From an uncultured Actinomycetes bacterium (GTDB lineage: Bacteria > Actinomycetota > Thermoleophilia > Solirubrobacterales > Solirubrobacteraceae), in NCBI GenBank assembly GCA_963766525.1, contig CAVYAX010000014.1, positions 169,527-233,526 on the forward strand: a stretch of DNA of 64,000 nucleotides, given 5' to 3'. The position numbers and the translations under genes are program-made. Under the pieces are notes generated by a model that ran no database searches, was not told the origin of the DNA, and saw nothing but the letters and a program-made list of their open reading frames with translations. This document shows positions 5,029-63,424 of the stretch, in pieces. How positions within the stretch are numbered: the stretch's first letter is position 1; the number at the start of each line of letters is the position of its first letter.

Positions 5029-5064
5029 GCAAGGTGCCTTCCATAACGACGCGAGAGGACCACG

Positions 5065-5505: not shown

Positions 5506-5522
5506 CGCCGGCGGACGCGGGC

Positions 5523-6043: not shown

Positions 6044-6055
6044 ACACACCCGACC

Positions 6056-10522: not shown

Positions 10523-10529
10523 GGACGTC

Positions 10530-10934: not shown

Positions 10935-12931
10935 TGTCACACCTGCCCCAGCTCCAGCTCGACGATCGCACGTTCGGAGATCTCGTCAGCGAGGCGCGCA
11001 CGCGCATCTCGCAGGCCTGCCCGGAGTGGACGGAGCACAACGTCTCGGATCCCGGGATCACGCTCGTCGAGCTGTTCGCGTGGATGACCGAGCTGACGAT
11101 CTACCGGCTCAACCGGATCCCGGACAAGCTCCACGTCGCCCTGCTGGACCTCGTCGGCATCGGCCTCGATCCACCGAGCGCCGCGACGGTCGACCTGCGC
11201 TTCGACCTGACCGGGCCGGCGACGGAGCCCATCTCGATCCCGGCTGCGGGCACGGAGGTCGGCACGCCGCGGGCGGGCGGCGAGGAGCCGATCGTCTTTC
11301 AGACCACCGAGGACTTCACGATCGAGCCGCTGCGCCCGGCCGCCTACGTGCTCAGGCGCGGCGATCAGATCACGAGCGTCCCGGTTGCCGGCGGCGTGGC
11401 GAAGCCGGCCGGCGCGCAGCAGCTCGCGTTCGGCGACCCGCCCGAGCTCGGCGACGCGCTGCACCTCGGCTTCGAGGCCCCGATCGGGCGGCTCGTGATG
11501 CGCGTCGAGGTCGAGGCCTCGCCCGCGCGTGGCACCGGCGTCGACCCCGACGATCCGCCGCTGCGCTGGGAGGTCTCGGCCGGCGACGACGAGTGGCACG
11601 CCGCCGAGGTGCTCGACGACGCGACCGGCGGCTTCAACTACGGCAGCGGCCGCGTCGAGCTGCAGCTACCAGCGCGCAGCGAGAAGCGACAGCTCGCCGG
11701 CCACCGCATGCACTGGCTGCGCTGCCGCGTCCACGACCGGACCGTGTCCGGTGCGCAGAGCGAGCCCTACGCGCACCCGCCGGAGATCTACTCGATCACG
11801 GCCGCCCCGACGGGCGCGCTGCTTGGCGCCGCCCACTGCTCGCACGCGGCCAGGGAGCCGCTCGGCGTCAGCGATGGCACGCCCGGCCAAGTGCTGTCGC
11901 TGCGCCGCCGGCCGGTTCTGCCGCTGGCCGCGGGGGAGACCCTCGAGGTCCAGCACCCCGGCGAGACGATGTGGAGGGCGTGGGAGGCGCGCGACACGTT
12001 CGCGACGAGCACCGCCGGCGACACGCACTTCGCGATCGACCTCGTCGCCGGCGAGATCACGTTCGGGCCCTCGATCCGCGAGGCGGACGGCGGCTGGCGG
12101 CAGTACGGCGACGTGCCGCCGAAGGGCGCGGCGCTGCGCTTCAGCGGCTACCGCCACGGCGGCGGGCGCAGCGGCAACGTCGCCGCCGGCACGCTCACGA
12201 TGCTGAAGAGCTCGGTGGCGGGCATCGACGCCGTCGTCAACCCGGCTGCGGCCACGGGCGGCGTCGACGCCGAGTCGCTGACCGCCGCGCGCCAGCGCGC
12301 GGCCCTCGAGATCCGCTCGCGCCACCGCGCCGTGACCGGCGAGGACTACGAGTTCCTCGCGGGCGAGGCCTCGCCGCGCGTCGCACGAGCGCGCTGCCTG
12401 CCCCTCGGCGACGGCGGCGCGGTTGCGCTGCACCTGCTCCCGCAGATCCAGCCCGCCGATCGCCGGCTCACCTTCGCGGAGCTCACGCCCGACGAGTCGC
12501 TGCTGCGGACCGTGGCCGCCTACCTCGACGAGCGCCGCACGATCGGCACGACCGTGCACCTGCTGGGAGTGAAGCTGCGGGGCGTCAGCGTCGTCGTCGA
12601 CGTCCTGGCGTCAGACGCGGCGGACACGACCCGCGTCGAGGAGGAGATCGCGCACGCCCTCTACACCTTCATCAACCCGCTTGTCGGCGGCGCCGTGCGC
12701 GGGGAGGGCAGCGGCTGGCCGTTTGAGCGCATGCTCAACCAGGGCGAGCTGTACGGCGTCGTGCATGCGATCGAAGGCGTCGAGTACGTCAAGCTCCTGC
12801 GGATCTACGAGACGGACCTCGCGACCGGCGAGCGCGGCGCGCAGCCCGCCGGTACGCACGTCGTGATCCGGCCCGAGGAGCTGCTGGCGTCCGGCCAGCA
12901 CCACGTCAAGGCGAGCCACCGGGACACGTGA
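10934..12931 (+). CDS. Baseplate J-like protein (T4 gp6 / P2 gpJ / Afp11).
   Basis: The N-terminus MSHLPQLQLDDRTFGDLVSEARTRISQACPEWTEHNVSDPGITLVELFAWMTE matches the Baseplate_J family. Its ATG overlaps the gp25 stop. Confidence 0.85.
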   Translation: MSHLPQLQLDDRTFGDLVSEARTRISQACPEWTEHNVSDPGITLVELFAWMTELTIYRLNRIPDKLHVALLDLVGIGLDPPSAATVDLRFDLTGPATEPISIPAAGTEVGTPRAGGEEPIVFQTTEDFTIEPLRPAAYVLRRGDQITSVPVAGGVAKPAGAQQLAFGDPPELGDALHLGFEAPIGRLVMRVEVEASPARGTGVDPDDPPLRWEVSAGDDEWHAAEVLDDATGGFNYGSGRVELQLPARSEKRQLAGHRMHWLRCRVHDRTVSGAQSEPYAHPPEIYSITAAPTGALLGAAHCSHAAREPLGVSDGTPGQVLSLRRRPVLPLAAGETLEVQHPGETMWRAWEARDTFATSTAGDTHFAIDLVAGEITFGPSIREADGGWRQYGDVPPKGAALRFSGYRHGGGRSGNVAAGTLTMLKSSVAGIDAVVNPAAATGGVDAESLTAARQRAALEIRSRHRAVTGEDYEFLAGEASPRVARARCLPLGDGGAVALHLLPQIQPADRRLTFAELTPDESLLRTVAAYLDERRTIGTTVHLLGVKLRGVSVVVDVLASDAADTTRVEEEIAHALYTFINPLVGGAVRGEGSGWPFERMLNQGELYGVVHAIEGVEYVKLLRIYETDLATGERGAQPAGTHVVIRPEELLASGQHHVKASHRDT

Positions 12932-47337: not shown

Positions 47338-47408
47338 CTCGCGCAAGTCTGCGGGTCCCGGCGGACGAAGCGACGTCCGCCGCACCGGTCGCTAGCCTCT
47401 CGAACCCC

Positions 47409-49007
47409 GTGCAGTACCCGGTCGAGACCTTCACGCCCGCCGAGCGCGAGCGCCTGCGGCCGCACGTCACCAACATCGACCGGCCGGTGTTCGCGCTGGT
47501 CAACCTGCCCGAGACCGTCAAGGGCGCGCTGTTCGCGCGCTACTCGCGCTACCCGGGGACGCTGCGCCGGCTGTTCCTCGACGAGTTCGCGTCGTCGCTG
47601 CCGGAGAACGCCGCGGCGTACGACAACGCCGAGGGCGCGCGCGCCGCGGACTTCTACGAGCGGATCTTCGTCGGCTACGGCGACGACTCGATCGCCCAGC
47701 TCGGCGGGGCGCACGTCGCGTGCGAATGGGTCTCCAACGTCCTGACGAAGGTGCTGCAGCGCCCGCGCCTGGGCGCCTACCTCGAGCAGTCGACGCGCTA
47801 CATCGCCTACGACCGCCCGATCGAGGGGACCTCGCAGTACCGCTACTACCGCGACGAGGCGCTCGGGGTCGAGTACGAGGCCGCGATGGACGAGATCTTC
47901 GGGATCTACTCCGCCGCGCTGCCACGGGTGTCCGCGTGGGCGGCCGAGCGCTACCCGCCTTCGGAAGGCGAGTCGCCGCAGGCACACGCGCGCGCGATCA
48001 AGGCGAAGTCGCTCGACCTGCTGCGCGGCCTGCTGCCGGCCGCGTCGCTGTCGCACATGGGGATCTTCGCGACGGGCCAGACCTACGAGCAGCTCATCCT
48101 GCACCTCCTCGCGCACCCGCTGCCCGAGGCGCGCCACTACGGGTCGATGATCCTCGAGTCCGTCCAGGCGGTCATGCCGAGCTTCGTCTCGCGCGTCGAG
48201 CGCCCCGATCGCGGCGGCGAGTGGGTGTCCTACCTGCGCCGCCGCGAGCAGGCCGCCGAGCGCTGGGCGGCGCGGCTGGGGCTCGATCGCCGGGCCGGCG
48301 ACGACGGCGCCGGCGGGCCGTCCGTGCGCCTGACCCACCACGACGGCGACGAGGAGCTCATGCTCGCCGCGCTGCTCTTCGAGTCCACGGGCGCCGACGA
48401 GCAGACGACGCGGGCGGCGCTGGCCGATCTCGACCCCGGTGAGCGCGGCGAGCTGCTGGCCGACCTCTGCGGCGGGCGCGCGAACCGCCGCCACCGGCCG
48501 GGGCGCGGCCTCGAGTCGCTGCGCTACCGCTTCGAGATCGTGAGCGACTACGGCGCCTTCCGCGACCTGCAGCGCCACCGGATGCTCACGTGCCAGTGGC
48601 AGACGCTCACGCCCGACCTCGGCGCGGGCGTGCCCGAGGAGGTCGACCTCGCCGGCGCCGGCGACGACTTCCGTCGCGCTCTGGACGTCTCGCAGCGCGC
48701 GTACGAGGGCCTGCTCGACGCCGGGCACGACCGCCGCGCGGCCATGTACGCGCTGTGCCTCGGCTACCGCATGCGCTACGTCCTCGACCTCAACGCGCGC
48801 GAGGCGATGCAGCTCGTCGAGCTGCGCTCGGGGCGCGAGGGACACCCCGCGTACCGCGCGATCGCACACGCGATGCACGAGCGGATCGCGGCGGTGCACC
48901 CCGCCGTAGCGGCGGCGATGACGCACGTCGATCGCGAGACCGAGCCGCGCCTCGAGCGGATCGTCTCCGAGCTGCGCACGCAGGCGAAGCTCGACGCGCT
49001 GGCGTAG
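47409..49007 (+). CDS. thyX: Flavin-dependent thymidylate synthase ThyX-like protein in a long two-domain form.
   Basis: ALFARYSRYPG and ...YGAFRDLQRHRMLTCQWQ... resemble the ThyX signature, though the RHR-x7-S position has Thr. The size (~530 aa) exceeds canonical ThyX and the start codon is uncertain. Confidence 0.55.
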   Translation: MQYPVETFTPAERERLRPHVTNIDRPVFALVNLPETVKGALFARYSRYPGTLRRLFLDEFASSLPENAAAYDNAEGARAADFYERIFVGYGDDSIAQLGGAHVACEWVSNVLTKVLQRPRLGAYLEQSTRYIAYDRPIEGTSQYRYYRDEALGVEYEAAMDEIFGIYSAALPRVSAWAAERYPPSEGESPQAHARAIKAKSLDLLRGLLPAASLSHMGIFATGQTYEQLILHLLAHPLPEARHYGSMILESVQAVMPSFVSRVERPDRGGEWVSYLRRREQAAERWAARLGLDRRAGDDGAGGPSVRLTHHDGDEELMLAALLFESTGADEQTTRAALADLDPGERGELLADLCGGRANRRHRPGRGLESLRYRFEIVSDYGAFRDLQRHRMLTCQWQTLTPDLGAGVPEEVDLAGAGDDFRRALDVSQRAYEGLLDAGHDRRAAMYALCLGYRMRYVLDLNAREAMQLVELRSGREGHPAYRAIAHAMHERIAAVHPAVAAAMTHVDRETEPRLERIVSELRTQAKLDALA

Positions 49008-49068
49008 CGCGTGGCGGCGCGATCGCGCCGCACGGCCGGTGCGCGGCGGCGCTGCTAGGGTCGCCGCC

Positions 49069-49425
49069 ATGGCGACGGACGACGAAGCCCGTGCCGAGCG
49101 CGCGCGCAACATGGGCAGCCTCGTGCTGCGCAGCAACCGCGACGGCGAGACGCACATCATCGAGCTGCTCGGTGAGCTCGACATCGCCGGCGCGCCGAGC
49201 CTCGAGGAGGAGCTGCTCCGTATCGAGGCGAGCGACGCGACGTCGATCGTCTGCGACCTCGGCGGCCTCGAGTTCATCGACTCGACCGGCATCCGCCTGC
49301 TCGTGATGGCCGCCGACCGCTCGGCGGGCGACGGCCGCTTCACGATGCTGCGCGGCCCCCAGCAGGTCCACCGCGTCTTCGAGATCACCGATCTCGTGAC
49401 GCGGCTGCCGTTCGCCGACCTCTGA
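49069..49425 (+). CDS. STAS-domain anti-sigma-factor antagonist (SpoIIAA-like).
   Basis: ...HIIELLGELDIAGAPSLEEELLRI...IVCDLGGLEFIDSTGIRLLV... matches the STAS pattern. Confidence 0.7.
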   Translation: MATDDEARAERARNMGSLVLRSNRDGETHIIELLGELDIAGAPSLEEELLRIEASDATSIVCDLGGLEFIDSTGIRLLVMAADRSAGDGRFTMLRGPQQVHRVFEITDLVTRLPFADL

Positions 49426-49494
49426 TGGAGCTCACCGGCGCGTCGACCCGGCGTCATGCCGCAGGCGCGCACCGTCACGCGCATCCAGCGCCGC

Positions 49495-51265
49495 TCAGCG
49501 GACGATCTTGAACGCCGTCCGCTTCGGCGGCGACGTGTTCGCCACCGGGCCGATTCCGCGTGCGTTGAGCCGGTAGCGGCCGGGCTTGAGCGTGCGGCCG
49601 CCGATCCGGCCGCGCAGCTCGATCTTGTTGGTGCCCTTGCGGCCCGTGACCGTGAACGAGCCCTTGACCGCAAGCCAGCGCTCGCAGCGCGGGCGGCGTG
49701 CGGTTGCGGGTCGACGGCTTGACGCACTTGGAGCTCACCTTGCGACCCGAGGCGGACCGGTCGATGGTGAACCGCACCTTGCCGGGCCTGTCGAGCGCGA
49801 ACGTCACGATCGTGCCGATGGCGACTCGGGCCGCGCGGAACGGGCCGCCGGACGGCGCGGCGCGGAACGTCGTGCGCGAGAGGCGCAGCGCGGTGATGCG
49901 CGGCGGGCTGATGAACGGGGTCGGGGTCGGCGTCGGGGCGGCCATCGGCGTCGGCGTCGGCACCGGCGTGGGCACAGGCGTCGGGACCGGCGTCGGCGTC
50001 ACCGTCGGCGTCGCGACGGGCGTGATCGCTGTCAGCGAGAACGATGCGACGCCGCGCGCTTGGTTGTCGCCGCCGGCGCTCGTGAAGCCGCCGCCCGCGA
50101 AGAGGCTGCGCGGGCTGGTCGCGGGGGCGAGGCGATCGAAGATCGCCAGCGCGTGTCCCTCGCCGACCCAGGGCCCGTTGCCGGCACCGTTCGAGCCCAG
50201 CGGGCGCCACGCGCTGCCGTCGTAGTAGGCGACGTTGTCGGCCGTCGGGTCGCCGGCGGCATCCTGGAAGCTGCCGGTCGCGAAGAGGTTCGAGCCGAAG
50301 CTCGTCAGCGCGTAGATGAAGGTCGAGGCCGGGAACCAGCCGTCGTCATTCGCGGCGTTCGAGCCCACCGCGCTCCACGCCGAGCCGTTCCAGCGCGCGA
50401 CGTTGTCGGCTTGCGCGATGCCGGACACGTTCTTGACGTCCGTGCCGACGTAGACGTCGGTCCCGACAGCGGTGAGGCTGCGGACGAAGCCGTCGATCGC
50501 GCACTGGCAGGCGCCCGCTCCGGAGCCCATCGCGTGCCAGCCGCCGGCGTCGAGGTAGGCGACGTTGTCGGCCTCCGGAATGCCGGCGATCGCGAAGCGC
50601 CCGCCGGCGTACAGCCTCCCGTTGCTGTCCGCGGCCAAGGCCAGGATCGGCCCGAAGCCCGTGGAGTCCGCGAGCGTCGAGGTCGCGTGGCCGTCGTTCA
50701 GGTCGCAGGCGACGAGGTAGTCAGCGGTGGCGATTCCCGCGCCGTTTTGGTACTCGCCGCCGACGTAGAGCGTCGATCCGATGACCTGAAGCGCCTTGAC
50801 GTTGCCTGTGAACGACGCCGGGCCGCCGGCGACGGTGTTGTCGCAGAACGGCGCCCAGGTCTGGCCGTCCCAGACGGCGAGGAAGTCGGCGTCCTGGTTG
50901 CCGCCGGCGTTCGTGAAGCTTCCGCCGGCGTAGGTCTTGCCGTTTGCGTAGGCGATCGCGAAGACGCCGCCGTTGAGCTGGTCGCTGGCCGAGCCGACCG
51001 CGTTCCACGCGCTGCCGTTCCAGCTCGCGATGCGGTCCGCGGCCGCGTTGCCGCCCGCGTCGGTGAACTCGCCGCCGACGAGCAGCAGGCCGGGCGCGTC
51101 GCCGCTGAGCACGTTCACGTTGCCGTTGAGCGAATCGGACCCGGGCGTGCCGGCGTCGCCGAGGTGATCCCAGCCGCCCGGCCCGGCGGTCACGGCCTGC
51201 CCGACGAAGGCACCACCGAGCGCAAGCGCGACGAGCGCGATCGCACCCAGCCATCTCAGCCCCAC
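49495..51265 (-). CDS. Secreted beta-propeller repeat protein (delta-60 / SBBP-like GGxFTxAGG...W(N/D)GSxWSxxG repeats) with a Pro/Thr linker and the shared CTD. It has an apparent frameshift near 49690.
   Basis: A signal peptide and at least 8 repeats, then TPVATPTVTPTPVPTPVPTPVPTPTP. The CTD's last ~60 codons (..RWLAVKGSFTVTGRKGTNKIELRGRIGGRTLKPGRYRLNARGIGPVANTSPPKRTAFKIVR) lie in another frame. Confidence 0.55.
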
Positions 51266-51413
51266 GGCAGCCCGCCCTCTTTCAGCCTGCGTCGATCGCC
51301 GGTCGCTCGAGCGAGCGACCGATCGGTCCGACCACGCTACCGCGAACCGGCCGCGGCGGCGAGCGGTGCGGTCCTTTTCACCGCCGTCCCCGGAGGCCGT
51401 ATGGTGCGACGCG

Positions 51414-53039
51414 ATGAGGCGGCGCGAATGGTGGGCGTGGGGCGCGCTGGTCGCGCTCGCGTTCGCTGCCCGCCTGGCCGACCTCGGAAGCCGCCCGTAC
51501 CAGTTCGACGAGGGCCAGGTCGCCTACGCCGCCTATCAGCTGTCGGCGCACGGCGACTACCACTACATGCCGGTCCTGCACGGGCCGCTGAACTACGAGC
51601 TCACCGCGCTGAGCCACCTCGTGTTCGGCACGGTCGACGTCGCCAATCGGATCCCGGCGGCGATCGCCGGCACGCTCCTCGTCGCGCTGGCGTTCGGCCT
51701 GCGCCGCCAGCTCGGTCGCGAGGCGGCGTTCGCCGGCGGCGTCTTGCTGTGCTTCAGCCCGACGCTCTTGTACTACTCGCGCTTCAGCCGCGAGGAGCTT
51801 GTCATGGCGTGCGTCACGCTCGCGCTCGTCGTGGTCGCGGCGCGGCTCGTCGCGGCGCCGCGCCGCTGGCACGTCGAGGCGCTCGGCGGCCTGCTCGCGC
51901 TGAGCTTCGCGACGAAGGAGGCCACGTTCCTGCACGTGCCGATCGGGATCGTCGCTGGGCTGGCGTGGTGGCGGTGGCGCGGTCCCGCGCGCCTCCCGGG
52001 GCCCGCGCGCCTCCCGGGGCCCGCGCGCCTCCCGGGGCCCGCACGCCTCCCGCTCGGGATCGGCCCGCGCGGGAGGGGTCTGGCGAAAAACGGCGTCTAT
52101 GGCGCCGTTTTTCGCCAGACCCCCCTGCGTTGGTGGCTGTCGGGCGCCGCGGTGTTCGTGCTCGTCTTCGTGATCCTCTTCGGGCAGTTCGGCACGCACC
52201 TCTCGGGCGTCTGGGACGGCGCCTACGAAGGCCTCGCTTACTGGGCGCACGAGCACGGCCTGCACCGCGGCGGCGAGGACTGGTTCGCCTACCTCATCCT
52301 GCTCGTCGCCTACGAGCTGCCGCTGCTGGTGCTCGGCGCGATCGGCGCGGTGTGGTCCGTGCGGCGGCGCCACGCGCTCGGCACGGGCATGACCGTCGCG
52401 GCGGTGCTGACGCTCGCGATCTACTCCTACGCCGGCGAGCGGTTCGCCTGGCTGCTCGTGACGACGCTCATCCCGCTCGCGCTGCTCGCCGGCCTCGGCT
52501 TCGCGGCGCTATGGCGGTCGCGGCGCGCCGTCGCGATCGCGGTCACCGTGCCGTTGCTGGCGGCGCTCGCCTGGAGCGACGTGCAGGCGCAGATCCTGCG
52601 CCCCAACGACCCGCGCGAGCTCATGACGGTCGCGCCCACGGACGCCGTCGTGCCCCGGATCGCGTCCGAGCTGCGCCTGCGCGACGCGCGTGCGCGCGCG
52701 GCCGGACGCCCGCGCCCCACGATCGAAGTCGACCTGAACTACGGCTCGGCGTCGCCGTGGTCGTGGTACCTGCGCGACCTGCTCGGCGGCTACCCCGACA
52801 TGGCCGCGGACACGTACGTCCCGACCGGCGAGGTGCTCATCGTGACCGACACCTCGCGCGAGCTGCTCGGCTCACGCCTGCGCGACTACGAGGGCCGCCC
52901 GTTCGTCCTGCGCGGCCGCCGGCCGTCGATGGGCACGGGCTTCAGCCCTAAGGGCCTCGTCCACTGGTTCTTGTACCGCGAGCCGTGGGCGCCGGTGACC
53001 CCCGAGCGCGAGTGGCTCTACGAGCGACACGCTCCCTGA
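51414..53039 (+). CDS. Large polytopic membrane protein resembling the PMT/ArnT-type (GT39/GT83-like) glycosyltransferase or 'flippase-like' family. It carries an in-frame 18-bp x4 tandem repeat and an embedded 21-bp hairpin.
   Basis: The N-terminus WWAWGALVALAFAARLADLGSRPYQFDEGQVAYAAYQL..HYMPVLHGPLNYEL is typical of this family. The start is at MRRREWW (51414), or at 51366. Confidence 0.55.
   Translation: MRRREWWAWGALVALAFAARLADLGSRPYQFDEGQVAYAAYQLSAHGDYHYMPVLHGPLNYELTALSHLVFGTVDVANRIPAAIAGTLLVALAFGLRRQLGREAAFAGGVLLCFSPTLLYYSRFSREELVMACVTLALVVVAARLVAAPRRWHVEALGGLLALSFATKEATFLHVPIGIVAGLAWWRWRGPARLPGPARLPGPARLPGPARLPLGIGPRGRGLAKNGVYGAVFRQTPLRWWLSGAAVFVLVFVILFGQFGTHLSGVWDGAYEGLAYWAHEHGLHRGGEDWFAYLILLVAYELPLLVLGAIGAVWSVRRRHALGTGMTVAAVLTLAIYSYAGERFAWLLVTTLIPLALLAGLGFAALWRSRRAVAIAVTVPLLAALAWSDVQAQILRPNDPRELMTVAPTDAVVPRIASELRLRDARARAAGRPRPTIEVDLNYGSASPWSWYLRDLLGGYPDMAADTYVPTGEVLIVTDTSRELLGSRLRDYEGRPFVLRGRRPSMGTGFSPKGLVHWFLYREPWAPVTPEREWLYERHAP
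51984..52055 (+). repeat. 18-bp x4 perfect tandem repeat (cccgcgcgcctcccgggg) encoding (GPARLP)4 inside the membrane-protein CDS.
   Basis: Direct reading. Confidence 0.8.
52075..52123. repeat. Perfect 21-bp inverted repeat (ggggtctggcgaaaaacggcg / cgccgtttttcgccagacccc) with a 7-nt loop, forming a hairpin with an A5/T5 core inside a CDS.
   Basis: Direct reading. It is locally AT-rich against a ~70% GC background. Confidence 0.8.
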
Positions 53040-53080
53040 CAACTTGTCATGGCGGATAGCACCCCAGCGTGTAGCGTGCG

Positions 53081-53629
53081 ATGCCAACGATGAGCGACGA
53101 GTTCCCCGCATCCACGCCGAGACGCAAGCTCGAGATCACCCTCGACGATCTCGGCGAGCCGGCGCCGACGGTGCCGCAGCCGCCCCCGGCCGGGCCGTTC
53201 CCGCCGGTGGGCCGCCAGCCGAAGCCGCCCGTCGCTCAGCAGCCGCCGCCGCAGCACCCTCCTGCGCAGCACCCGCCTGCGCAGCACCCGCCGCAGTACC
53301 CGCCGCCGCAGCACCCCCCGGCCCAGTATCCGCCGAGCAACAATCCCAACATGGCGGCCGTCGCGCTCGCGATGAACCACAAGTCCGCCGGCGTGGCGGT
53401 CCTGCTGTCGCTCCTGTGGACCGGCGCCGGCCAGGTCTACTGCGGCAGGGCCGGGCGCGGCGTCGCGTTCTTCTGCGCCGCGGTCTTCGCCTGGTGCACG
53501 CTGTTCTTCGTCATCGGCTTCATCCTGCTGCCGGCCGTCTGGATCTGGGCCGCGGTGGACGCGGCAAGCCTCGCGAACCGCCAGAACGCCATGCTCATGG
53601 CGTCGGTCGCAAGCCAGCCGTTCCGCTGA
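53081..53629 (+). CDS. TM2-domain membrane protein with a Pro/Gln-rich N-terminal region (QHPPAQHPP repeats).
   Basis: The C-terminus NHKSAGVAVLLSLLWTGAGQVYCGRAGRGVAFF...WIWAAVDA is TM2-domain-like (two TM helices). Confidence 0.6.
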   Translation: MPTMSDEFPASTPRRKLEITLDDLGEPAPTVPQPPPAGPFPPVGRQPKPPVAQQPPPQHPPAQHPPAQHPPQYPPPQHPPAQYPPSNNPNMAAVALAMNHKSAGVAVLLSLLWTGAGQVYCGRAGRGVAFFCAAVFAWCTLFFVIGFILLPAVWIWAAVDAASLANRQNAMLMASVASQPFR

Positions 53630-53630
53630 C

Positions 53631-55610
<1,980 letters not shown>

Positions 55611-55611
55611 G

Positions 55612-57156
55612 TCAGGCCTCCTTCGACCGCTCGCGCAACTCGATGCGGCGGATCTTGCCGGTCAGGGTCTTGGGCAGGTCGTCGACGAACTCGACGATCC
55701 GGGGGTACGCGTACGCCGACAGGTGCCCGCGCACGAACTGCGAGATCTCCTTGCCGAGCTCGTCCGACGGCTCGTACCCGGACGCGAGCACGACGAACGC
55801 CTTGACGATGTTGCCGCGCCGCTCGTCGGGCCACGCGACGGCCGCGGCCTCGGCGACCGCGGGATGCTCGAGGCACGTCGACTCGACCTCGAACGGGCCG
55901 ATCCTAAAGCCCGCGGAGATGATCACGTCGTCGGCGCGGCCCTCGTACCAGAAGTAGCCGTCGTCGTCGATCGACGCGGCGTCCTTCGTGTGGAACCAGT
56001 CGCCTCCGAACGTTTCCTTCGCGGCCTCCTCGTTGTTCCAGTAGCCGAGCGGATAGTGCGGGTTCGAGCGGGCGCGCAGGCAGATCTCGCCGCGCTCGCC
56101 GACGGCCACCGGCCGCTCGTCCTCGTCGAGGATCTGCACGTCCCAGCCGGGCAGCGGCTTGCCCATGGAGCCCTCGCGCACCTCCATGAACGGGAAGTTC
56201 CCGCACAGCGGATAGCTCTCGCTCAGCCCGTAGTAGTCGAGCACCGTCACGCCGTACTGCTCGCGAAACCAGCGGATCGCCTCGGGGTTCAGCGGCTCGC
56301 CCGCCGAGCAGACGATGCGGAAGTCCTGCGGGTAGCGCGTGCCGGCGTCGGAGATGCCCATCATCGAGCGGATCGCGGTCGGCGTGCCGAAGACGTTCGT
56401 CGGGCGGTGGCGCGAGAGGAACGCGAGCTGGCCGTGCGGGTCGAAGCCGCCCTTGCGCTGCAGCACGACCTGCACCGCGCCGTAGCGCCACGGCCCGATC
56501 AGCGGCGAGATGCCGGCCGCCCACGCCCACTCGCCCATGCCGTGGAAGCGCTCTTCGTCCTGCACGTCGTGGCAGTAGACGAACTCGTTGTGGCCGAGGA
56601 TGTAGCGGTGGGCGTGCAGGATGCCCTTCGCCAGGCCCGTCGTGCCGGACGTGTAGTAGAGCTGCGCCGGGTCGTCGGCGGCCGTGTCGACGGGCTCGAA
56701 GTCCGTGTCGCCGGAGTCCAGGTCGCCGGGCTCGATGACGATGACGTCGGCCTGGCCCTCGACCCGGGAGCGATTGGCCTCGTTCGTCACGACGACCTTC
56801 GCCTGCGAGTCCGACAAGCGGTGGGTGATCCCCTCGTCGCCGTAGAGCACGGACATCGACAGCAGGATCGCGCCGCTCTTCCACGTCGCGAAGAACGCGG
56901 CGGCGGTCTCGGGCGTCGGCGGCAGGAGCATCGCGACGCGGTCGCCGCGCTGCACGCCGTGCTCGCGCAGCCGCAGCGCGAAGCGGTTGGACATGTCCTG
57001 AAGCTCTCCCCAGTCCAGCTCGCGGACGTTGCCGTCGGGATCCTCGTGGATCATGGCGAGCTTCTCGCGCGGGTGCTTGTCGCAGACGTCCGCGGCGATG
57101 TTGTAGCGCTCGGGCACGTGCCACGAGTGCTGTGCACACGCCTCCTCGTAGGTCAT
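55612..57156 (-). CDS. AMP-dependent synthetase/ligase (acyl- or aryl-CoA ligase, ~514 aa).
   Basis: The AMP-binding motif YTSGTTGLAKGI and C-terminal ...GKIRRIEL. It sits in tandem with acs. Confidence 0.85.
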   Translation of the reverse strand: MTYEEACAQHSWHVPERYNIAADVCDKHPREKLAMIHEDPDGNVRELDWGELQDMSNRFALRLREHGVQRGDRVAMLLPPTPETAAAFFATWKSGAILLSMSVLYGDEGITHRLSDSQAKVVVTNEANRSRVEGQADVIVIEPGDLDSGDTDFEPVDTAADDPAQLYYTSGTTGLAKGILHAHRYILGHNEFVYCHDVQDEERFHGMGEWAWAAGISPLIGPWRYGAVQVVLQRKGGFDPHGQLAFLSRHRPTNVFGTPTAIRSMMGISDAGTRYPQDFRIVCSAGEPLNPEAIRWFREQYGVTVLDYYGLSESYPLCGNFPFMEVREGSMGKPLPGWDVQILDEDERPVAVGERGEICLRARSNPHYPLGYWNNEEAAKETFGGDWFHTKDAASIDDDGYFWYEGRADDVIISAGFRIGPFEVESTCLEHPAVAEAAAVAWPDERRGNIVKAFVVLASGYEPSDELGKEISQFVRGHLSAYAYPRIVEFVDDLPKTLTGKIRRIELRERSKEA

Positions 57157-57214
57157 GACTCAGACCGTACCCGTCCGGCCAAGGCGGAGCGCAAGATCGG
57201 CGCGGGCGACGACG

Positions 57215-58192
57215 CTACCGGCGCTTGCGCTTGCGCTTCTTCGACGACGGGTGCGGGCGGCGCTCGGGCAGCTCCGGCGCAGGCGTCTTCGGCGGCTCGG
57301 CGGGCGCGTGGCGCTTGCCGCGGCGCGGTGCTTGGTCGGCGTCCTCGTCGTCGTCGGGCGTGCGAGGTCCCATGCGCGCCTCGCGCAGCTCCTGCTGGGA
57401 CGGCCATGGCTGCGCGTCGCCGGTGACCCATGCGGGCGGCAGGCCGGCCGGCCACTTGCCGAGGAACAGCGCGCCGATCGCCACGAGCCAGAACGCTTGC
57501 ACGATCGGCAGCGACGCGCCCAGCGGGATGATGAACAGCGCCCCGACGATGATGCCCAGCACGCCCATGAAGCGCGTGAGCAGGCCGACGCGCATGCCGT
57601 TGAGAGCGAGCAGCACGAACGCGAGCGCCAGCGCGAAGACGCCGATGACCTGGAGCAGCCCGGCCGCGAGCAGCGCCGGCGGCTGGAGCGCGTCGCGCGC
57701 CTCGGCGGCGGTCTGCGTGGCGGAGTCCGCGAACGCCGAGGCGGACAGAGCGCCGCCGATCGCCTGCACGAGGCTCGACACGGCGAGCATGACCGAGCCT
57801 GTCACCGCGGCGACGACGATCGCGCGCGGCAGGTCGGGCCGGCGGGCTTTGACCGAGCGGTAGAGATGCGTGAGCGTGAGGCCGATCGCTGCCGCCGCGA
57901 GCGCCAGCACGACGCCGAGCAAGATGATCTGGACGGCGTTCTCGTCGGCCCACAGCACCTGGCGTGCCTTCAGCCCCGGCTCGGGCGGGTTGGGCGTGAG
58001 GTGCTCGCGGAGCGAGTCGATGACCGGCACGGTCGGCCGGTCGCTGAAGATCGCCGCGGTCAGCGCGCCGCCGGCGAGCGTCAGGATCCCGGCGGCGATC
58101 CCCGCGACACCGGCCTGGACGCGCCTGCGCTGCTCGTCGGCAAGCGTCGCGTCAGGGGTGGGCGCCATCGTCTCTTCCCCGGTGGTCGCCAC
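57215..58192 (-). CDS. Membrane protein with about 6 TM helices and a strongly basic C-terminal tail. Hypothetical.
   Basis: ORF with hydrophobic helices and a KKRKRKRR end. No family was recognised. Confidence 0.5.
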   Translation of the reverse strand: MATTGEETMAPTPDATLADEQRRRVQAGVAGIAAGILTLAGGALTAAIFSDRPTVPVIDSLREHLTPNPPEPGLKARQVLWADENAVQIILLGVVLALAAAAIGLTLTHLYRSVKARRPDLPRAIVVAAVTGSVMLAVSSLVQAIGGALSASAFADSATQTAAEARDALQPPALLAAGLLQVIGVFALALAFVLLALNGMRVGLLTRFMGVLGIIVGALFIIPLGASLPIVQAFWLVAIGALFLGKWPAGLPPAWVTGDAQPWPSQQELREARMGPRTPDDDEDADQAPRRGKRHAPAEPPKTPAPELPERRPHPSSKKRKRKRR

Positions 58193-58200
58193 GGCCGCAA

Positions 58201-58665
58201 GTGTATGTTGCGGTCGTGGAGATTCGAGACGTGATGACCGAGAGCGTTGTCACCGCGCGGCCGTCGGCCACGGTCCGTCAGGTTGCCGAGCTCATGCGCG
58301 AGCGCAACGTCGGCTCGGTCGTGCTGCTGGACTTGGAGGGGTCGCTCGTGGGCTTCGTCACCGATCGCGATCTGGCGCTGGGCGCGCTGACCGACGGCCG
58401 CGACCCCGGCGACCCGGTCGCCGCGCACAGCTCGTCGCCCGTCGTGACGGCCGAGCCGGGCATGGACGTCGAGGAGGCGGCCGAGCTCATGGTCCGCCAC
58501 GGCATCCGCCGCCTGCCGATCCTCGACGACGGCCGGCTCACCGGGATCATCACGCTGGACGACATCGCCGTGCGCACGGGCGATCTCGAGCTCGCCCACC
58601 ACATGACGGCGCAGATCACCCGGGCCGCGCTGCCGGGCTTCTACTTCCACGACCGCGGCGGGTGA
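58201..58665 (+). CDS. CBS-pair domain protein.
   Basis: ...VMTESVVTARPSATVRQVAELMRERNVGSVVLLD...GFVTDRDL... repeated twice matches the CBS pattern. Confidence 0.7.
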   Translation: MYVAVVEIRDVMTESVVTARPSATVRQVAELMRERNVGSVVLLDLEGSLVGFVTDRDLALGALTDGRDPGDPVAAHSSSPVVTAEPGMDVEEAAELMVRHGIRRLPILDDGRLTGIITLDDIAVRTGDLELAHHMTAQITRAALPGFYFHDRGG

Positions 58666-58828
58666 GCGACCGGCCGCTCGACCGGGCCTTGCCGCGCCCT
58701 GCGGCCCGAGCCGATGAGCGACAGGCCGCTCCTCTCGACCGAGCCTTGCCGCGCCCTGCGGCCCGAGCCGATGAGCGGCAGGCCGCTCCTCTCGACCGGG
58801 CCTTGCCGCGCCCTGCGAGCCTGCGCCG
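58663..58828 (+). repeat. Three tandem degenerate copies (52, 57 and 58 bp) of the first ~57 nt of the downstream methyltransferase CDS. Each of the last two begins with ATGAGCG.
   Basis: Direct reading: the units start at 58663, 58714 and 58771, and the real gene start ATGAGCGCCAGGCCG is at 58829. Confidence 0.75.
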
Positions 58829-59776
58829 ATGAGCGCCAGGCCGATCGCCGTGCCCGCGTGCCCGGCCTGCGGCGGGCCGCTCGAGCGGTGGCGCACCGTG
58901 CCGGGATCCGATCCGGCGCTGCCGGGCGACTACGCGCTCGACCGCTGCCGGGCGTGCGGCACAGCCGTGACGCTCGCGCCCGTCCCCGACGAAGCGCACG
59001 AGTCGGGCGCCTACGGCGGGGGCGCACCACGGCTGTCGCGCCTCGTCCGGCCGGTCCTGCGCCTGTTCGATCGCCGCCGCCTCGCGCTGCTCGAGCGCGC
59101 GGGCGCGACGACGCCGGGGCGCCTGCTCGACGTCGGCGCCGGTCGCGGGCGCTTCGTCGCCCACGCGCGCTCCGTCGGCTGGTACGCGCACGGGATCGAG
59201 CCGTCGCAGCGCGGCGTCGACGGCGCCGCGGCGCTCGGCATCGAGCTCGTGCATGCCGAGATCCGCACCGCCGATGTCCCGCCCGCGTCGCTCGACGCGG
59301 TGACGCTGTGGCACGTGCTCGAGCACCTCGACGACCCGGTGCTCGCGCTCGAGTCGATCGCCGGGTGGCTGCGCCGCGGCGGGCTGCTGCTGGTGGGCGT
59401 GCCGAACCTCGCGAGCGTCCAGGCGCGGGTCGGCGGGGCGCGCTGGTATCACCTCGACGTCCCGCGCCATCGGACGCACTTCACCGCGCGGGGGCTCGCA
59501 GCGCTGCTGCGCGCGCACGGCTTCGAGCCGGTGGCGACGCAGCACGTGCTCCTCGAGCACAACCCGTTCGGGCTGTGGGTGTCGTTCGTGAGCCACTTCA
59601 CGCGCGTGCCGTCGTGGCTCTACCACGCGCTCAAGCACAACGCCCCGCTGCGCAGCCGCGACGCGCTCATCACTGCGCTGGCGCTGCCGCTCGTGCCGAT
59701 CGCGGTCCTGCTGGAGCTCGCGTTCGGGCTGGCGCGGCGCGGCGGGACGGTCGCCGTCGTCGCGCGCCGGGTCTAA
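58829..59776 (+). CDS. Class I SAM-dependent methyltransferase with an N-terminal zinc-ribbon (CPACGG...CRACG).
   Basis: Motif I LLDVGAGRGRF, a post-I acidic residue, and the overall Methyltransf_11/13-like layout. Confidence 0.75.
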   Translation: MSARPIAVPACPACGGPLERWRTVPGSDPALPGDYALDRCRACGTAVTLAPVPDEAHESGAYGGGAPRLSRLVRPVLRLFDRRRLALLERAGATTPGRLLDVGAGRGRFVAHARSVGWYAHGIEPSQRGVDGAAALGIELVHAEIRTADVPPASLDAVTLWHVLEHLDDPVLALESIAGWLRRGGLLLVGVPNLASVQARVGGARWYHLDVPRHRTHFTARGLAALLRAHGFEPVATQHVLLEHNPFGLWVSFVSHFTRVPSWLYHALKHNAPLRSRDALITALALPLVPIAVLLELAFGLARRGGTVAVVARRV

Positions 59777-60774
59777 GCCGCTTCCTCCGCCCGCTCGTCG
59801 ACCCAGCGATCGAGCGTCAGCCAGCGGGCGAACAGCCAGTCGATGCGCTCGTCCTCGCCGGCCGGGATCTCGTCGGGTCGCACGACCCACATCCGCAGCT
59901 CGACGGTCCGCGGCTCGAGCAGCAGGCGCCAGAGGTTGCTCGCGCCCGCCGGGATCCCCGAGTGCCCGACGAAGATCACGTCCGCTTCCGGCGCGCCGTC
60001 CACCGCCGCGAGCGCGCCTCCGGGCCGCGGCGCGGCGACGTGCTCCATCTCGCGCGCCCAGGCCGCCTCCTCGTGATGGCCCGCTTTCGCGAGGCGCTCG
60101 ATGCCGCGCGCGCGCCGCTCTGCGGAGAAGTTGCCGCCCTCGGGGAAGATCAGCACGGCGTCGTCGCCGCCGAGGCCGCGCGACATGGCCTCGATCTCGC
60201 CCTCGATGTCGCCGCCGCGCGGGTCCACGAAGCGGTAGTGCAGCCGCCGGCCGAGGACGTCGATGAGCGGATCCAGCGCCAGGCCCTCGTGCAGCACGAC
60301 CCGCGGCCGGCGCTCGTAGCGGCACAGCAGCGCGTGCAGGACGAGCATCGAGTCGCCCTCGCCGGAGTGCCGGCTCAGCACGATCGCCGGCCGCCTGCGA
60401 TCGGAGAGCGCCTCCTCCGCCTCGGCCGAGTCGGTGACGCGTATCCGCACGCGCGCGAGCCGGGTGATCGAGCGGTTGATCCGGCTCACGAACGTGGCCA
60501 TCACCTCGTGGTAGGCGTGCTCCGCGCGTGCGTCTCGCCGCAGGCCGCCCCCGAGCCACACGGTGAGGCACGCGAGCATCCCGGCGAGGTGCGCGGCGGC
60601 CCACGAGGCGAGGATCGCCACGACGCGCAGCGGTCGCCAGGCGCCGCCGGTCAGCGGCGAGGCGACGGCGGCGGCGAGCGCGAGCAGCGGCGACGCGACG
60701 ATGATCGCGAGGTCCACGAGCGCGACGAGCGGCGCGATGACCACGCGCCGGACGAGGGTCGGCGGGACGAGCAT
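59773..60774 (-). CDS. Membrane-associated lysophospholipid (1-acyl-sn-glycerol-3-phosphate) acyltransferase-like protein (PlsC family).
   Basis: N-terminal TM helices, the HX4D motif (RHSGEGD) and an FPEGG motif. It is translationally coupled (TGATG) to the upstream patatin gene. Confidence 0.7.
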   Translation of the reverse strand: MLVPPTLVRRVVIAPLVALVDLAIIVASPLLALAAAVASPLTGGAWRPLRVVAILASWAAAHLAGMLACLTVWLGGGLRRDARAEHAYHEVMATFVSRINRSITRLARVRIRVTDSAEAEEALSDRRRPAIVLSRHSGEGDSMLVLHALLCRYERRPRVVLHEGLALDPLIDVLGRRLHYRFVDPRGGDIEGEIEAMSRGLGGDDAVLIFPEGGNFSAERRARGIERLAKAGHHEEAAWAREMEHVAAPRPGGALAAVDGAPEADVIFVGHSGIPAGASNLWRLLLEPRTVELRMWVVRPDEIPAGEDERIDWLFARWLTLDRWVDERAEEAA

Positions 60775-61644
60775 CAGGCGGCGCTTCCGAGGTCGTGCTC
60801 GTCGAGATAGCGCGTGGTGGCCGCGTGCGCGTGAGCGATGCGGCCGCCCGCCTTCGAGGTGTCGCGGTAGCGCAGCTGCGAGAGGTCGGTGTAGCGCGGC
60901 GGGTCCTTCGCGCCGGTCGGCAGCACGTGGACCTCGACGTCGTCGGGCAGGTCGGCGAGGTCGCCGAGGAAGCGGTGGCGGCGCGCGACCTCGAACGCGA
61001 CGAGCGCGACCTCCCACGGCCAGCGCGGCGGCTCGAGCGGCCGGTCGAGCCGGCCGACGTGCAGCACGAAGATCTGCCGCGCGCCGAGCGTCACCGCGCG
61101 GCTCACGGGGATGCTGTTGACGATGCCGCCATCGATGTAGTGCTCGCCGCCGATCTCGACGGGCGGCAGGATGCCGGGCACGGCGGCCGAGGCGAGGACG
61201 GCGTCGACGAGCGGCCCGTCGGCGAACCAGTGCTCGCTGGCGCGCTCGATGCTCGCGGCGACGCACTGGAAGGGAACCGCGAGGTCCTCGATCCGTCCGT
61301 CCCCGAGGACGCGCGGCGAGCCGGGCGCGCAGCGTCTCGTTGCCGTGCAGGTGGGTGCGCGTGCGCGCCAGCGTCGCGGCGCGCCGCAGGACGGACCCGC
61401 CGAAGGCGCCTTGGCGGCCGATGTCCGCCCACAGGCGGGCGAGGCGCTGCACCCCGTCGGCGGTCGGGTCGGCGGCGACCGCGGCGCCGTTGATAGCGCC
61501 GACGGATGTCCCGAGCACGAGGTCCGGGACGATCCCGCGCTCGAGCAGCGCGCGCAGCATCCCGACCTCGTGCGCGCCGAGCGGCCCGCCGCCACCGCCG
61601 AGGACGAAGGCCACGCCACCATCCGCAGGCCGCGCCGGGGTCAT
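60774..61644 (-). CDS. Patatin-like phospholipase, with an apparent frameshift near 61320.
   Basis: The N-terminal oxyanion hole GGGGGPLG and the GTSVG (GxSxG) motif read in one frame. The Asp-Gly-Gly region (YIDGGIVNSIP) and the C-terminus read in another. Confidence 0.65.
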
Positions 61645-61758
61645 CACCCCCTCGTACCCGGGCCGGCGTCCCCGCACCTCGCAGCGAGGGGTGTCTCGTT
61701 CTGGTCGCGTATAGCGCGACGATAACGAGACACCCCCCGCGGGCGAAGCGGCTCCGGC

Positions 61759-62568
61759 TTACACCAAGACGCTGCGCGCGGCGGCGAGCGTGTCCCCGTC
61801 GGTGCTGCGGCGCGCGTCCGGGAGGAGCTTCGCCGCGGCGTCGGCGGCCGCGACGACGTGGGGCGGCGAGGCCGGACCCGTCACGACGGCGACCGGCACG
61901 CCGATCGCGCGCAGCTCGCCGCGCGAAGGCGACCAGCTGAGCTGGCCGGCGTAGTCCGCGAAGAAGCCCTTGCGCGACCCGCGGGCGCGCTCGCGGCGAC
62001 CCGCGTCCGCGCCCATGGCGGCGCCCGCGCCCGCGCCCATGGCGGCGCCCGTGCCCGCGCCCATGGCGGCCGCGTCGGCGTCGTCGCGCGCGTCGAGCCA
62101 CGCCGCGATCGCCTCCTCCGGCCCCCCGTCGCGCAGCGCCTGCTCGAGCAGCGAGCGCTCGGCCGCGAGCGCCTCGGTCGCCGCCGGCACGAACGCGAAC
62201 AGCGGCAGGTCCGCCAGCACGGCGGCGCTCGCGAGCTGCGGCCGGCGCACGAGCAGCTCGAGCACGACGAGCGCGCCGAAGCCCTCGCCGACCAGCACGG
62301 CCGGCTCGGCGCCGAGCGCGCGCAGCAGCGCGGCGGCGTCCTCGGACTGCTCCTGGACCGTCGTCGCGGCGTAGGGCTCGGGCGCGCCGCTCGCGCCGTA
62401 GCCACGGCGGTCGTAGGCGATCGCGCGCGCGCCGCAGGCCGCGAGCTCGTCGAGCAGGGGCGCTCCCGCCGCGGCATCGGACGCCATCCCGTGGACGAGG
62501 AGCAGCGGGCGCCCGACGCCGCGCTCGTCGTAGTGCAGCGCGACCCCCGCGCCCTCGACCTCAGGCAT
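61759..62568 (-). CDS. Alpha/beta-hydrolase fold protein.
   Basis: LLLVHGMASD...AYDRRGYGAS...GEGFGALV (a nucleophile-elbow-like motif). It contains a 21-bp x3 tandem repeat encoding AAMGAG(T/A)G. Confidence 0.7.
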   Translation of the reverse strand: MPEVEGAGVALHYDERGVGRPLLLVHGMASDAAAGAPLLDELAACGARAIAYDRRGYGASGAPEPYAATTVQEQSEDAAALLRALGAEPAVLVGEGFGALVVLELLVRRPQLASAAVLADLPLFAFVPAATEALAAERSLLEQALRDGGPEEAIAAWLDARDDADAAAMGAGTGAAMGAGAGAAMGADAGRRERARGSRKGFFADYAGQLSWSPSRGELRAIGVPVAVVTGPASPPHVVAAADAAAKLLPDARRSTDGDTLAAARSVLV

Positions 62569-62595
62569 GGCAGCGAGGCTCCGCCACGCGCGCGG

Positions 62596-63424
62596 CTACG
62601 GCGCGCGCAGGATGACCGTGCGCGCCGCCGTGTACGTCGCGCCGGTCAGCGGGTCGACGGTCAGGCGGAAGGTGATCGCGAGCCGGCCGTTGCGACGCAG
62701 CGCCCGACGCGCGACCGCGTTGAGCGGGACGGCGAAGGAGACGCGGCCCGGGCCGACCGACGCGCGCAGATGGCGGCCGACCTGGACCGGCAACGTGCTG
62801 CGGCCGCCGCTGAGCGCGCCGCGCCGCGCGAAGGCGCGCGCGAGCAGCCGCGAGCCCGCGCGGCTGACGCTGACCGAGCCGCGCAGCGTGAGGCTGCGCT
62901 GGGGGTTCGTGACGCGCAGGAGGGACGCGGCCGCGCCGGTGGCCGGCGGCGGAGGTGGCGGCGGCGGGGACACCGGAGGCGGAGGCGAGACGGGGCGGAG
63001 GCGGCGGCGGAGGCACGGGGCCACCCGGCACCGTGATCGCGCCGTTCATCCCCTCGCCGTGGAGGGCGCAGTAGAACGTGTAGGTGCCCGGAGCGGTGAA
63101 CGTGCACCGCCCGATCCATGCCGAGTTGCTCGGCTGGTTGGGCAGCGGCGGCACCGGCCCGCTGGACGGGCCCGCCGTCTGCTCGCAGCTCGTCGGCGCG
63201 GTCTTGAAGACGACGTTGTGCGGGTGGCTGCCGTCCTGCTGAAAGTAGACCAGGCCGCCGGAGTCGACCGTCAAGGCCGGGGTGCCGCCGTTGAACGTCT
63301 TGAACGCGTCGTCGGTGGCCACGATGCCGATCGTGGTCTGGCTCTGCGCCGGCCCGCCGATCAAGAGCACCCCGCCTACAACGGCGGCGCCGACCAGCGC
63401 GAGATAGCCCCGACGCATCCTCAC
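62596..63424 (-). CDS. Secreted cupredoxin (a type-1 blue copper protein of the plastocyanin/azurin kind) with a poly-Pro linker and the shared CTD. It has an apparent frameshift inside the poly-Pro run near 63010.
   Basis: A signal peptide and the T1 Cu ligands H..(GSHPHNV)..C-x2-H-x4-M (YCALHGEGMNG). The CTD (..RRALRRNGRLAITFRLTVDPLTGATYTAARTVILRAP) lies in another frame after the PPPPPPPP run. Confidence 0.6.

Follow-up and report, generated by a model that had tools for sequence, protein, structure and literature searches.

The window analysed here is a stretch of 64,000 nucleotides (contig CAVYAX010000014.1, positions 169,527 to 233,526) from an uncultured member of the Solirubrobacteraceae. 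On its plus strand, at 51366..53039, lies an open reading frame (ORF) for a 557-aa Agl23-like polytopic membrane protein (PMT_2, GT-C-type), recognised from the ORF list and from profile matches to TIGR03663 (E = 5.1e-58; 197 bits against a curated cutoff of 126) and PF13231 PMT_2 (E = 5.3e-9). The protein has 217 homologues, the closest of which are 75-85% identical. Inside this gene, an 18-bp tandem repeat is followed by a perfect palindrome. An earlier note, made from the letters of the sequence, had placed both features in frame in a PMT-like membrane-protein gene that stays open through them, and this was borne out: the translation continues through repeat and palindrome as (GPARLP)x4 ... 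RGRGLAKNGVYGAVFRQTPLRWW.

Tandem Repeats Finder delimits the in-frame repeat at 51984..52052 (plus strand), with period 18, 3.8 copies, 98% matches and the consensus CCCGCGCGCCTCCCGGGG, in good agreement with the four GPARLP units noted before. A spacer of 22 nt (CTCGGGATCGGCCCGCGCGGGA, 52053..52074, plus strand), rather than the 20 bp counted earlier, separates it from the palindrome. An inverted-repeat search returned the left arm GGGGTCTGGCGAAAAACGGCG at 52075..52095 and the right arm CGCCGTTTTTCGCCAGACCCC at 52103..52123, each 21 nt long and pairing at 21/21 positions (100% complementary), which confirms the perfect stem with a 7-nt loop described in the note. The first and last bases of this loop (TCTATGG, 52096..52102) can also pair, leaving 3-5 nt unpaired. 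The arm occurs once in the window and in 0/100 dinucleotide shuffles, and the palindrome is one of three long hairpins in the entire 64 kb. As DNA, its 49 nt fold at -30.1 kcal/mol (z = -12.0); a 96-nt RNA context, in which the flanks lengthen the stem imperfectly, folds at -77.4 kcal/mol (z = -10.3). The fold of the 18-bp repeat region is unremarkable (z = 0.2). The hairpin is locally AT-rich, as previously remarked (GC 0.63 vs 0.72 in the window), and stop codons are missing from its arms in all six frames.

The gene appears normal around these features. The periodicity of GC content at third codon positions (GC3) has the same phase on both sides of the insert and is weaker just over it, and the ~300 codons downstream are conserved with their coding periodicity in phase. 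The note had the insert breaking up a transmembrane region; it actually occupies the position of a short inter-helix loop, strongly basic and with a hydrophobic helix on either side, the segment having nine K/R and no D/E. The positive-inside rule would presumably put this loop in the cytoplasm.

Three other readings offered earlier found no support. The first is a terminator-like hairpin, taken here as an intrinsic terminator or attenuator that would cut the host transcript short within the gene. The stem is GC-rich and very stable, and the intergenic relatives of the palindrome described below lie just past stop codons, as would suit such a role. However, no T/U run follows the stem on either strand (the plus strand continues with CCTGCGTTGG and the minus strand with TCCCGCGCGG), the five consecutive Ts being inside the stem rather than after it, and a terminator scan did not call the site. 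Hairpins without U-tracts also failed to terminate mycobacterial RNA polymerase in vitro (PMC3993855), and the downstream codons are fully conserved; we therefore regard a terminator as very improbable. The second, a recombination site, found no match in Rfam 15 at the gathering threshold in the whole window, and an attC-like site was rejected by inspection, as AAC/GTT is inside the arms instead of terminal and GAAAAAC does not fit RYYYAAC. The third, an excision footprint, fails because the element is intact and perfect. What stood was the note's suggestion of a miniature inserted palindromic element, in the style of repetitive extragenic palindromic (REP) sequences or miniature transposable elements with inverted repeats (MITEs), which is supported both by orthologue comparison and by copies found elsewhere.

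Filled, empty and decayed sites among Agl23-like orthologues

In protein and DNA alignments, residues 207-252 (51984..52121, plus strand) form an expanded loop segment in place of a basic loop of ~8 residues (PARRRIEV-type), so that the window has 38 codons (114 nt) more, net, than its orthologues; the boundaries of the insertion cannot be fixed exactly. We compared the gene with 36 database orthologues at >=70% identity. Thirty-three of these lack the insert: the distance between conserved anchors is 83 aa in the window vs 44-47 aa in these orthologues, which typically read WWRLRG-PARRR-IEV-PxxWWLSG. The empty site is also seen at DNA level in three orthologous contigs (L035, L037 and L038). 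The carriers (the window and the proteins P0003, P0007 and P0008) all belong to one sub-clade of 11, and no inserts were present among the orthologues outside it.

Where the insert is present, the copies have a common reading frame and a ..CATG.. loop, and they are preserved to different degrees. The palindrome is perfect in the window and in contig L031, diverged in L033 (fold z = -4.8) and decayed in L034 (z = -0.3). In L032, which holds the P0003 orthologue, the loop itself contains a second hairpin, with a 19-bp stem and no relation to the first (z = -6.8). This hairpin (CAGTGGTTCGAAACGCAAG-TCAGG-CTTGCGTTTTGAACCACTG, L032 3811-3853) sits exactly in the loop of the first and is still in frame, hinting either at hairpin loops as targets of insertion or at palindromes that expand from within. 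It did not score with the covariance model R1 described below and was rejected as a further member of the same family.

These comparisons also bear on whether the palindrome is an assembly or sequencing artefact, such as a fold-back chimera. Fold-back reads can yield perfect palindromes, and the related contigs look indel-prone. But the gene is normal on both sides, the same palindrome occupies the same site in the independent assembly L031, and diverged versions are present in four further independent assemblies, so that we give this explanation practically no credence.

The age of the insertion can be judged from contig L005, which belongs to the metagenome-assembled genome (MAG) of the uncultured Actinomycetes MFD02581.bin.2.156. 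L005 is syntenic with the window, matching 47378-49412 and 53641-58153, with flanks that are 87.7% and 86.3% identical. The 4.2 kb between these matches in the window (49412-53641) hold three genes and have shrunk to 310 bp in L005 (3180-3491). The lost block comprises a minus-strand gene for a secreted-looking protein of ~596 aa, the Agl23-like gene and, immediately 3' of it, the gene for a 182-aa proline-rich membrane protein (53081-53629, plus strand); the flanking genes, ThyX/STAS and acetyl-CoA synthetase, are kept at 86-88% identity. The remnant consists of the hairpin and collinear scraps of the host gene (WLSG and WDGAxGGLRYW codons), and the hairpin is the best-preserved piece of the deleted gene. 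It now lies between convergent genes, as other intergenic copies do. We considered L005 as an independent copy of the family and rejected this, since synteny and gene remnants make it orthologous to the copy in the window. Judged from these alignments, the insertion at the Agl23 site is old: synteny, gene scraps and hairpin together place it before the split from the L005 lineage (flanks ~87% identical), and the hairpin has outlived its host gene. The 182-aa protein gene in the window contains an imperfect tandem repeat of its own (53233-53339; 15/27/42 bp), which encodes a proline-rich PPQHPPAQ-type array.

The same orthologues indicate where the 18-bp repeat came from. Empty orthologues have a single GGTCCCGCGCG(C/G)CTC where the window has the array, and comparison of the two shows the repeat to be an expansion of the host gene's own P-A-R-L loop codons. 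In the spacer, as read from the sequence and compared with orthologues, the head of the repeat (CCCGCGCG) seems to recur in part as a 10-bp palindrome, CCCGCGCGGG (52064-52073), which abuts the hairpin; the spacer probably also holds remnants of the native R-I codons (ATC). In L031, which is 96% identical overall, the repeat region is ~39 nt shorter, with hundreds of identical flanking bases on both sides; this assembly has 61 gap openings in 8.5 kb, and error could account for part of the difference. Replication slippage stimulated by a hairpin would explain the expansion of short direct repeats beside a stable hairpin. The simplest reading of the array is slippage in a permissive loop, possibly helped by the hairpin.

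Because L031 is indel-prone, little should be made of its frameshift or of the gene call that is split there (P0037). Its positions 1-12866 align to window 50134-63221 at 96% identity over 8.5 kb, and at 86-87% beyond ~58.8 kb of the window, and gene calling has broken up both the acetyl-CoA synthetase gene and the Agl23-like gene. The contig probably comes from a long-read assembly prone to indels, is a recombinant, or both.

Copies of the palindrome at other loci

To find other copies of the palindrome, as the note had proposed, we scanned one genome per species for the 19-mer arm, which gave 30 matches. Four of these were contigs of a single MAG, again MFD02581.bin.2.156, and all four carry hairpins of the same design, so that the identical 19-21-mer of the left arm occurs at four loci of this genome. 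The other 26 were discarded as chance coding matches, mostly in unrelated phyla, or as generic GC-rich palindromes. Metagenome contigs were scanned with a structured pattern that required both arms. This added L044, L052, L064 and L065, all from soil samples, and probably L051, from a soil metagenome; ~25 of the 31 matches were discarded on inspection and for low R1 scores, again as chance coding matches or generic GC-rich palindromes. The structured pattern had no matches in viral contigs, so a phage origin is not suggested.

Copies at unrelated loci speak directly to the idea that the palindrome arose in situ, by inverted duplication of host sequence or a template switch, as a local accident. 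In favour of this, the native loop DNA is partly self-complementary (CCCGCGCG...CGCGCGG in L037) and the sequence on either side of the window copy prolongs the stem, though imperfectly. However, empty orthologues hold nothing like TGGCGAAAAACGGCG, and 19-21 nt of the arm recur unchanged at unrelated loci of another genome, and nearly unchanged in an unrelated MMPL gene as well as in metagenomes. The existence of these paralogous copies effectively refutes an origin in place.

We built a covariance model (R1) from 11 copies. All copies score 35-79 bits with it, and non-family sequences reach at most ~34 bits. The 16 copies that were aligned represent eight independent loci, five intergenic and three intragenic. 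Similarity among them stops at the foot of the stem, which gives a unit of ~49-55 nt with the consensus GGGG-TSTGGCG-AAAAAC-GGCG, a loop of 5-9 nt and the complement. The core, TGGCG..AAC / GTT..CGCCA, does not vary in any of the 16 copies, the loop varies between loci, and the outer stem covaries. The names of homologous proteins place the lineage in the Solirubrobacteraceae/Thermoleophilia. Taken together, these sequence comparisons show the palindrome to be, by all appearances, a copy of a low-copy, lineage-restricted family of ~49-55-nt hairpins in soil Solirubrobacterales (Thermoleophilia, Actinomycetota).

The intergenic copies were placed relative to coding sequences by codon-position GC and stop codons. 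They lie 42 nt after an AHSA1-like gene (L003), 82 nt after an aconitase gene (L027, with its orthologue L044), 27 nt after a gene for a LuxR-type regulator (L051), in an AT-richer spacer (L064) and, in L065, between convergent genes, 43 nt past a GNAT gene and 7 nt from the other gene's stop. Thus, four of the five are 27-82 nt past a stop codon, a downstream placement like that of REPs. The flanking genes (chaperonin/AHSA1, aconitase, GNAT, LuxR regulators) have no common theme, and we rejected a regulon of envelope genes near the copies, as the intergenic copies adjoin unrelated housekeeping genes. The copies in L027 (5989-6043) and L044 (169-223) come from two samples and have the same loop and the same A/A mismatch (AAAAA opposite TTATT), which indicates vertical inheritance of an imperfect copy; their outer stems differ.

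The three intragenic copies are all in polytopic membrane proteins, and each host reads the palindrome in another frame. In the Agl23-like gene of the window, the reading is GLAKNG..AVFRQT. A minus-strand ORF of L029 (hairpin at 6941-6991) gives GSG..RRFSPDP (peptide GRGSGAIRRLCRRFSPDPP), and a 790-aa MMPL/RND transporter in L052 gives GVWRKTA..PFFATRP (RGVWRKTAPWSPFFATRP). The case of L029 rests on ORF continuity and GC3 phase: its stop-free ORF of more than 488 codons, with several predicted transmembrane segments and no Pfam match, has the same coding phase on both sides of the hairpin. With three hosts and three frames, this is a DNA-level element and no protein module. A phmmer search with the 30-aa hairpin peptide of the window against 1.84 billion representatives found no further host, at poor sensitivity for a motif of ~17 aa; the only match (P0241, E = 1e-4) was an unrelated repetitive protein.

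The MMPL site provides a second set of orthologues. The linker that follows VDYAIQLQSR has 46-48 residues in ~90 of 120 orthologues, and 14 of the 120, which are 74-100% identical, contain the hairpin peptide, all at one position and in one frame. The DNA of five hairpin-bearing orthologues shows that the palindrome persists with compensated changes, for example GGCGAGAAACG / CGTTTCTCGCC in L071 and L072 and GGCGG.../...CCGCC in L073. In the translated arms, Lys on one side is matched by Phe-Phe-type residues on the other, and Glu by Leu, so that K->E accompanies F->L. Over the 16 copies, 86% of the cells of the stem alignment are paired, a fraction that is inflated because the search pattern behind several members called for both arms (copies found through orthology are free of this bias), and 8 of the 21 pairs have changed on both sides. 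Covariation is 0.193, compared with 0.101 +/- 0.016 in shuffled alignments (0/500 as high) and 0.05-0.09 in slid controls. We conclude from these alignments that the stem is evidently maintained by compensated substitutions. Selection on the function of a hairpin in DNA or in RNA 3' ends would fit this pattern, as would templated correction of a quasi-palindrome within a strand.

Most hairpin-bearing MMPL linkers also have a variable tandem repeat right 3' of the hairpin, with up to about nine GKEGGAAA-like units (P0127). In L072 (11159-11482), and also in L071 and L070 and in proteins P0123-P0127 and P0141, these are hypervariable in-frame (GKEGGAAA)n-like repeats with a 24-nt unit in a cytoplasmic linker. 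Linker length ranges from 44 to 137 residues among the orthologues, and the longest arrays directly follow the family hairpin.

Another long hairpin in the window (61688-61736) has an overall design like that of the family palindrome and an otherwise unrelated sequence. It is 49 nt long (GGGGTGTCTCG... / ...CGAGACACCCC), with a TATAG loop, two internal mismatches and a DNA fold of z = -8.8, and lies 23 nt past the end of a minus-strand alpha/beta-hydrolase gene (stop codon TAA, 61760-61762) and ~45 nt upstream of where the next minus-strand gene starts. The surrounding intergenic region (~61615-61790) cannot be aligned with L031, which has no hairpin there. Within the minus-strand hydrolase ORF, a 24-bp repeat in 3.2 copies (61993-62070; GCGGCGCCCGCGCCCGCGCCCATG, 94% matches) is mostly missing from L031.

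Spread and persistence of the family, and comparison with known elements

The observations would be explained as follows. The usual location of the family would be just downstream of genes, and copies could also become fixed inside genes because their arms are free of stop codons in all six frames. One copy would have entered the codons of the arginine-rich inter-helix loop of the Agl23-like protein, where it would be translated as an extra basic, flexible loop segment and tolerated. It would since have met several fates: remaining perfect (window), diverging (L033), decaying (L034), gaining a second hairpin (L032), being lost, or outliving its host (L005). The 18-bp array would be a secondary product, in which replication slippage amplified the host's P-A-R-L codons beside the hairpin, with a copy number that seems to differ among near-identical strains. 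We consider this combination of a dispersed hairpin family, an old in-frame insertion and a secondary slippage array probably correct as a whole. The copies may have spread by a hairpin-dependent route that leaves no target-site duplication, with HUH/RAYT-type single-strand transposition as our best guess, or perhaps by recombination copy-in.

Several observations weigh against this explanation. We saw no mobilising enzyme, master copy or recent transposition event. Target-site duplications were absent, the longest flanking direct repeats being 0-5 nt in the 16 copies, no more than the null distribution gives; a TSD-like repeat that we had picked out by eye around the MMPL copy (GAGGAGCGG) was no better than chance in this systematic test and was rejected. 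The element ends, GGGG.../...CCCC or covarying variants of these, bear no GTAG or CGTC tag, and no tetranucleotide is conserved in the flanks of the aligned copies. A search with R1 through the 64-kb window and ~330 kb of related loci brought up no further copies, which makes the family sparse and is unusual for REPs or MITEs. At the Agl23 site, the four carriers are interleaved with seven non-carriers (P0008 has the insert, whereas P0010, at 93% identity, lacks it), so that one must assume either a single ancient gain followed by several precise losses or a number of gains at one hot spot, and the data favour neither. The inflated pairing and the possible assembly error in the L031 repeat, both described above, belong here too, and the link between hairpin and slippage is an association only, since some MMPL linkers without a hairpin also have repeats. 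Finally, the strong invariance of TGGCG/CGCCA across long divergence and the survival of the hairpin in a pseudogene remnant fit a cis-element that benefits the host at least as well as they fit selfish DNA.

The last point leads to a different account of why the copies persist, one that agrees with ours on what they are. Here, the hairpin would be a sequence-specific element, acting as RNA or as a cruciform or dyad binding site for a protein, which would mark transcript 3' ends, protect them or be the target of a dedicated protein, and which would be kept by selection wherever it lands, coding regions included. The core is invariant in all 16 copies while the outer stem covaries, the stem at the MMPL site persists across 74-86% identical orthologues within a hypervariable linker, the hairpin is what remains best of the deleted gene between convergent genes in L005, and most intergenic copies follow a stop codon closely. 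However, the flanking genes have nothing in common, and the copy at the Agl23 site has decayed in L034 and is missing from most orthologues with no visible consequence. The lack of a U-tract also means that the hairpin is no intrinsic terminator by the criteria for mycobacterial RNA polymerase cited above. Template switching in quasi-palindromes can yield perfect or compensated arms without any selection. We regard a host-beneficial element as possible, though doubtful. A bolder version, to which we attach still less weight, is a functional class of coding palindromes: a conserved, sequence-specific hairpin cis-element of Solirubrobacterales, recognised in RNA or in DNA by a dedicated factor, retained wherever it lands, even in what is left of a deleted host gene, and locally seeding in-frame variable number tandem repeats (VNTRs). 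Such a class would be distinct from tagged REPs, Rickettsia palindromic elements (RPEs) and MITEs, and the copies would lie in loop-coding parts of polytopic envelope proteins, as they appear to in 3/3 intragenic hosts.

Whichever of these holds, three membrane proteins use three different frames of one ~50-bp palindrome, which stays palindromic through compensated changes of codons (Lys/Phe to Glu/Leu). This is a natural experiment in how DNA or RNA structure constrains protein sequence. There is also a practical side, as inserts and adjacent VNTRs split gene calls (such as P0037 in a 96%-identical contig) and make the proteins of metagenomes look more diverse than they are. Should selection act on the stem, the family would offer a handle on transcript 3'-end biology in a lineage without canonical terminators.

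How does the family compare with known elements? A classical MITE would consist of the terminal inverted repeats of an insertion sequence (IS) with a DDE transposase and almost no interior, moved by cut-and-paste. The arms are indeed perfect 21-bp inverted repeats, a trivial agreement given that the element is little else, and presence/absence polymorphism is seen both in the sub-clade of 11 and in the 14/120 MMPL orthologues. The hairpin nested in the loop in L032 also recalls the insertion of elements into one another described for pneumococcal repeats (PMC10969869). However, there is no consistent flanking direct repeat, the element has only 49 nt and a very low copy number, and no IS with matching ends occurs in the fetched loci, where the sole transposase (IS1595, in L037) does not adjoin a copy. 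A MITE origin is thus improbable. Intragenic MITEs such as ERIC, Correia and the cyanobacterial elements resemble the family in their inverted repeats, presence/absence polymorphism and in-frame survival (PMC10969869), but the present element has no target-site duplication, no internal sequence and no parent IS that could be identified. The SPRITE repeats of Streptococcus pneumoniae are likewise repeated hairpins at gene 3' ends that insert into one another, but have a Rho-independent terminator signature (PMC10969869), whereas this family has no U-tract.

Two mutational mechanisms come up repeatedly in this analysis, template switching and slippage. These are not element families, and they leave the same sequence at unrelated loci unexplained.

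REPs are closer. They are short, GC-rich stem-loops found mostly just downstream of coding regions and sometimes inside them (Di Nocera et al., 2013; PMC3733652), and they have no target-site duplications and a conserved stem with variable bases (PMC3733652). They also carry a GTAG or CGTC tetranucleotide and measure 20-40 bp (PMC3733652), whereas this family has neither tag at either end and measures 49-55 nt. REPs reach tens to hundreds of copies per genome and often form dimers or clusters; the copies of this family are single, and very few in the sequence scanned, which included no complete genome. Among the Pfam-annotated genes of the fetched loci, we found no Y1 transposase of the REP-associated (RAYT) kind. 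Two long hairpins of the window start with GGGGTSTS, which loosely resembles the GGGGWSAS of the terminal inverted repeats around RAYT-like 'TIRYT' genes; this is a lead rather than a match.

RPEs have been called protein-coding palindromes (Ogata et al., 2000, 2002; PMC10969869, PMC3733652). They are dispersed both between genes and, in frame, within unrelated genes, add a tolerated peptide and are retained over speciation, and all of this resembles the present family, which lies in frame in the Agl23-like gene, the MMPL transporter gene and the unnamed multi-transmembrane ORF of L029. There are also differences: RPE-1-type elements are ~100-150 bp long with one conserved peptide per family, unlike an element of ~49 nt read in three frames; a 1.3-Mb genome has dozens of copies, where the Solirubrobacterales family is sparse; and the hosts are Alphaproteobacteria rather than Thermoleophilia. 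RPE sequences of R. conorii have a CGTC tag at one end (PMC3733652), which the Solirubrobacterales family lacks. As the element is a third of the size and encodes no single peptide, we rejected a strict RPE.

The defining tags and criteria thus exclude the named families (tagged REPs, RPEs and MITEs), and a limited literature search found no such element described for Thermoleophilia. We therefore file it by its general kind, as an element that behaves like the REP/RPE class (PMC3733652, PMC10969869). Rickettsia is the best-known source of in-frame intragenic palindromes, and REPs inside genes occur here and there in other organisms, so that the phenomenon is known in principle. It is unusually clean here, in the use of three frames, the compensated codons, the survival of the hairpin in a wrecked gene and the adjacent VNTRs, and these leave room for a functional reading. 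A case in a free-living, high-GC soil actinobacterium extends the phenomenon to a very different type of genome.

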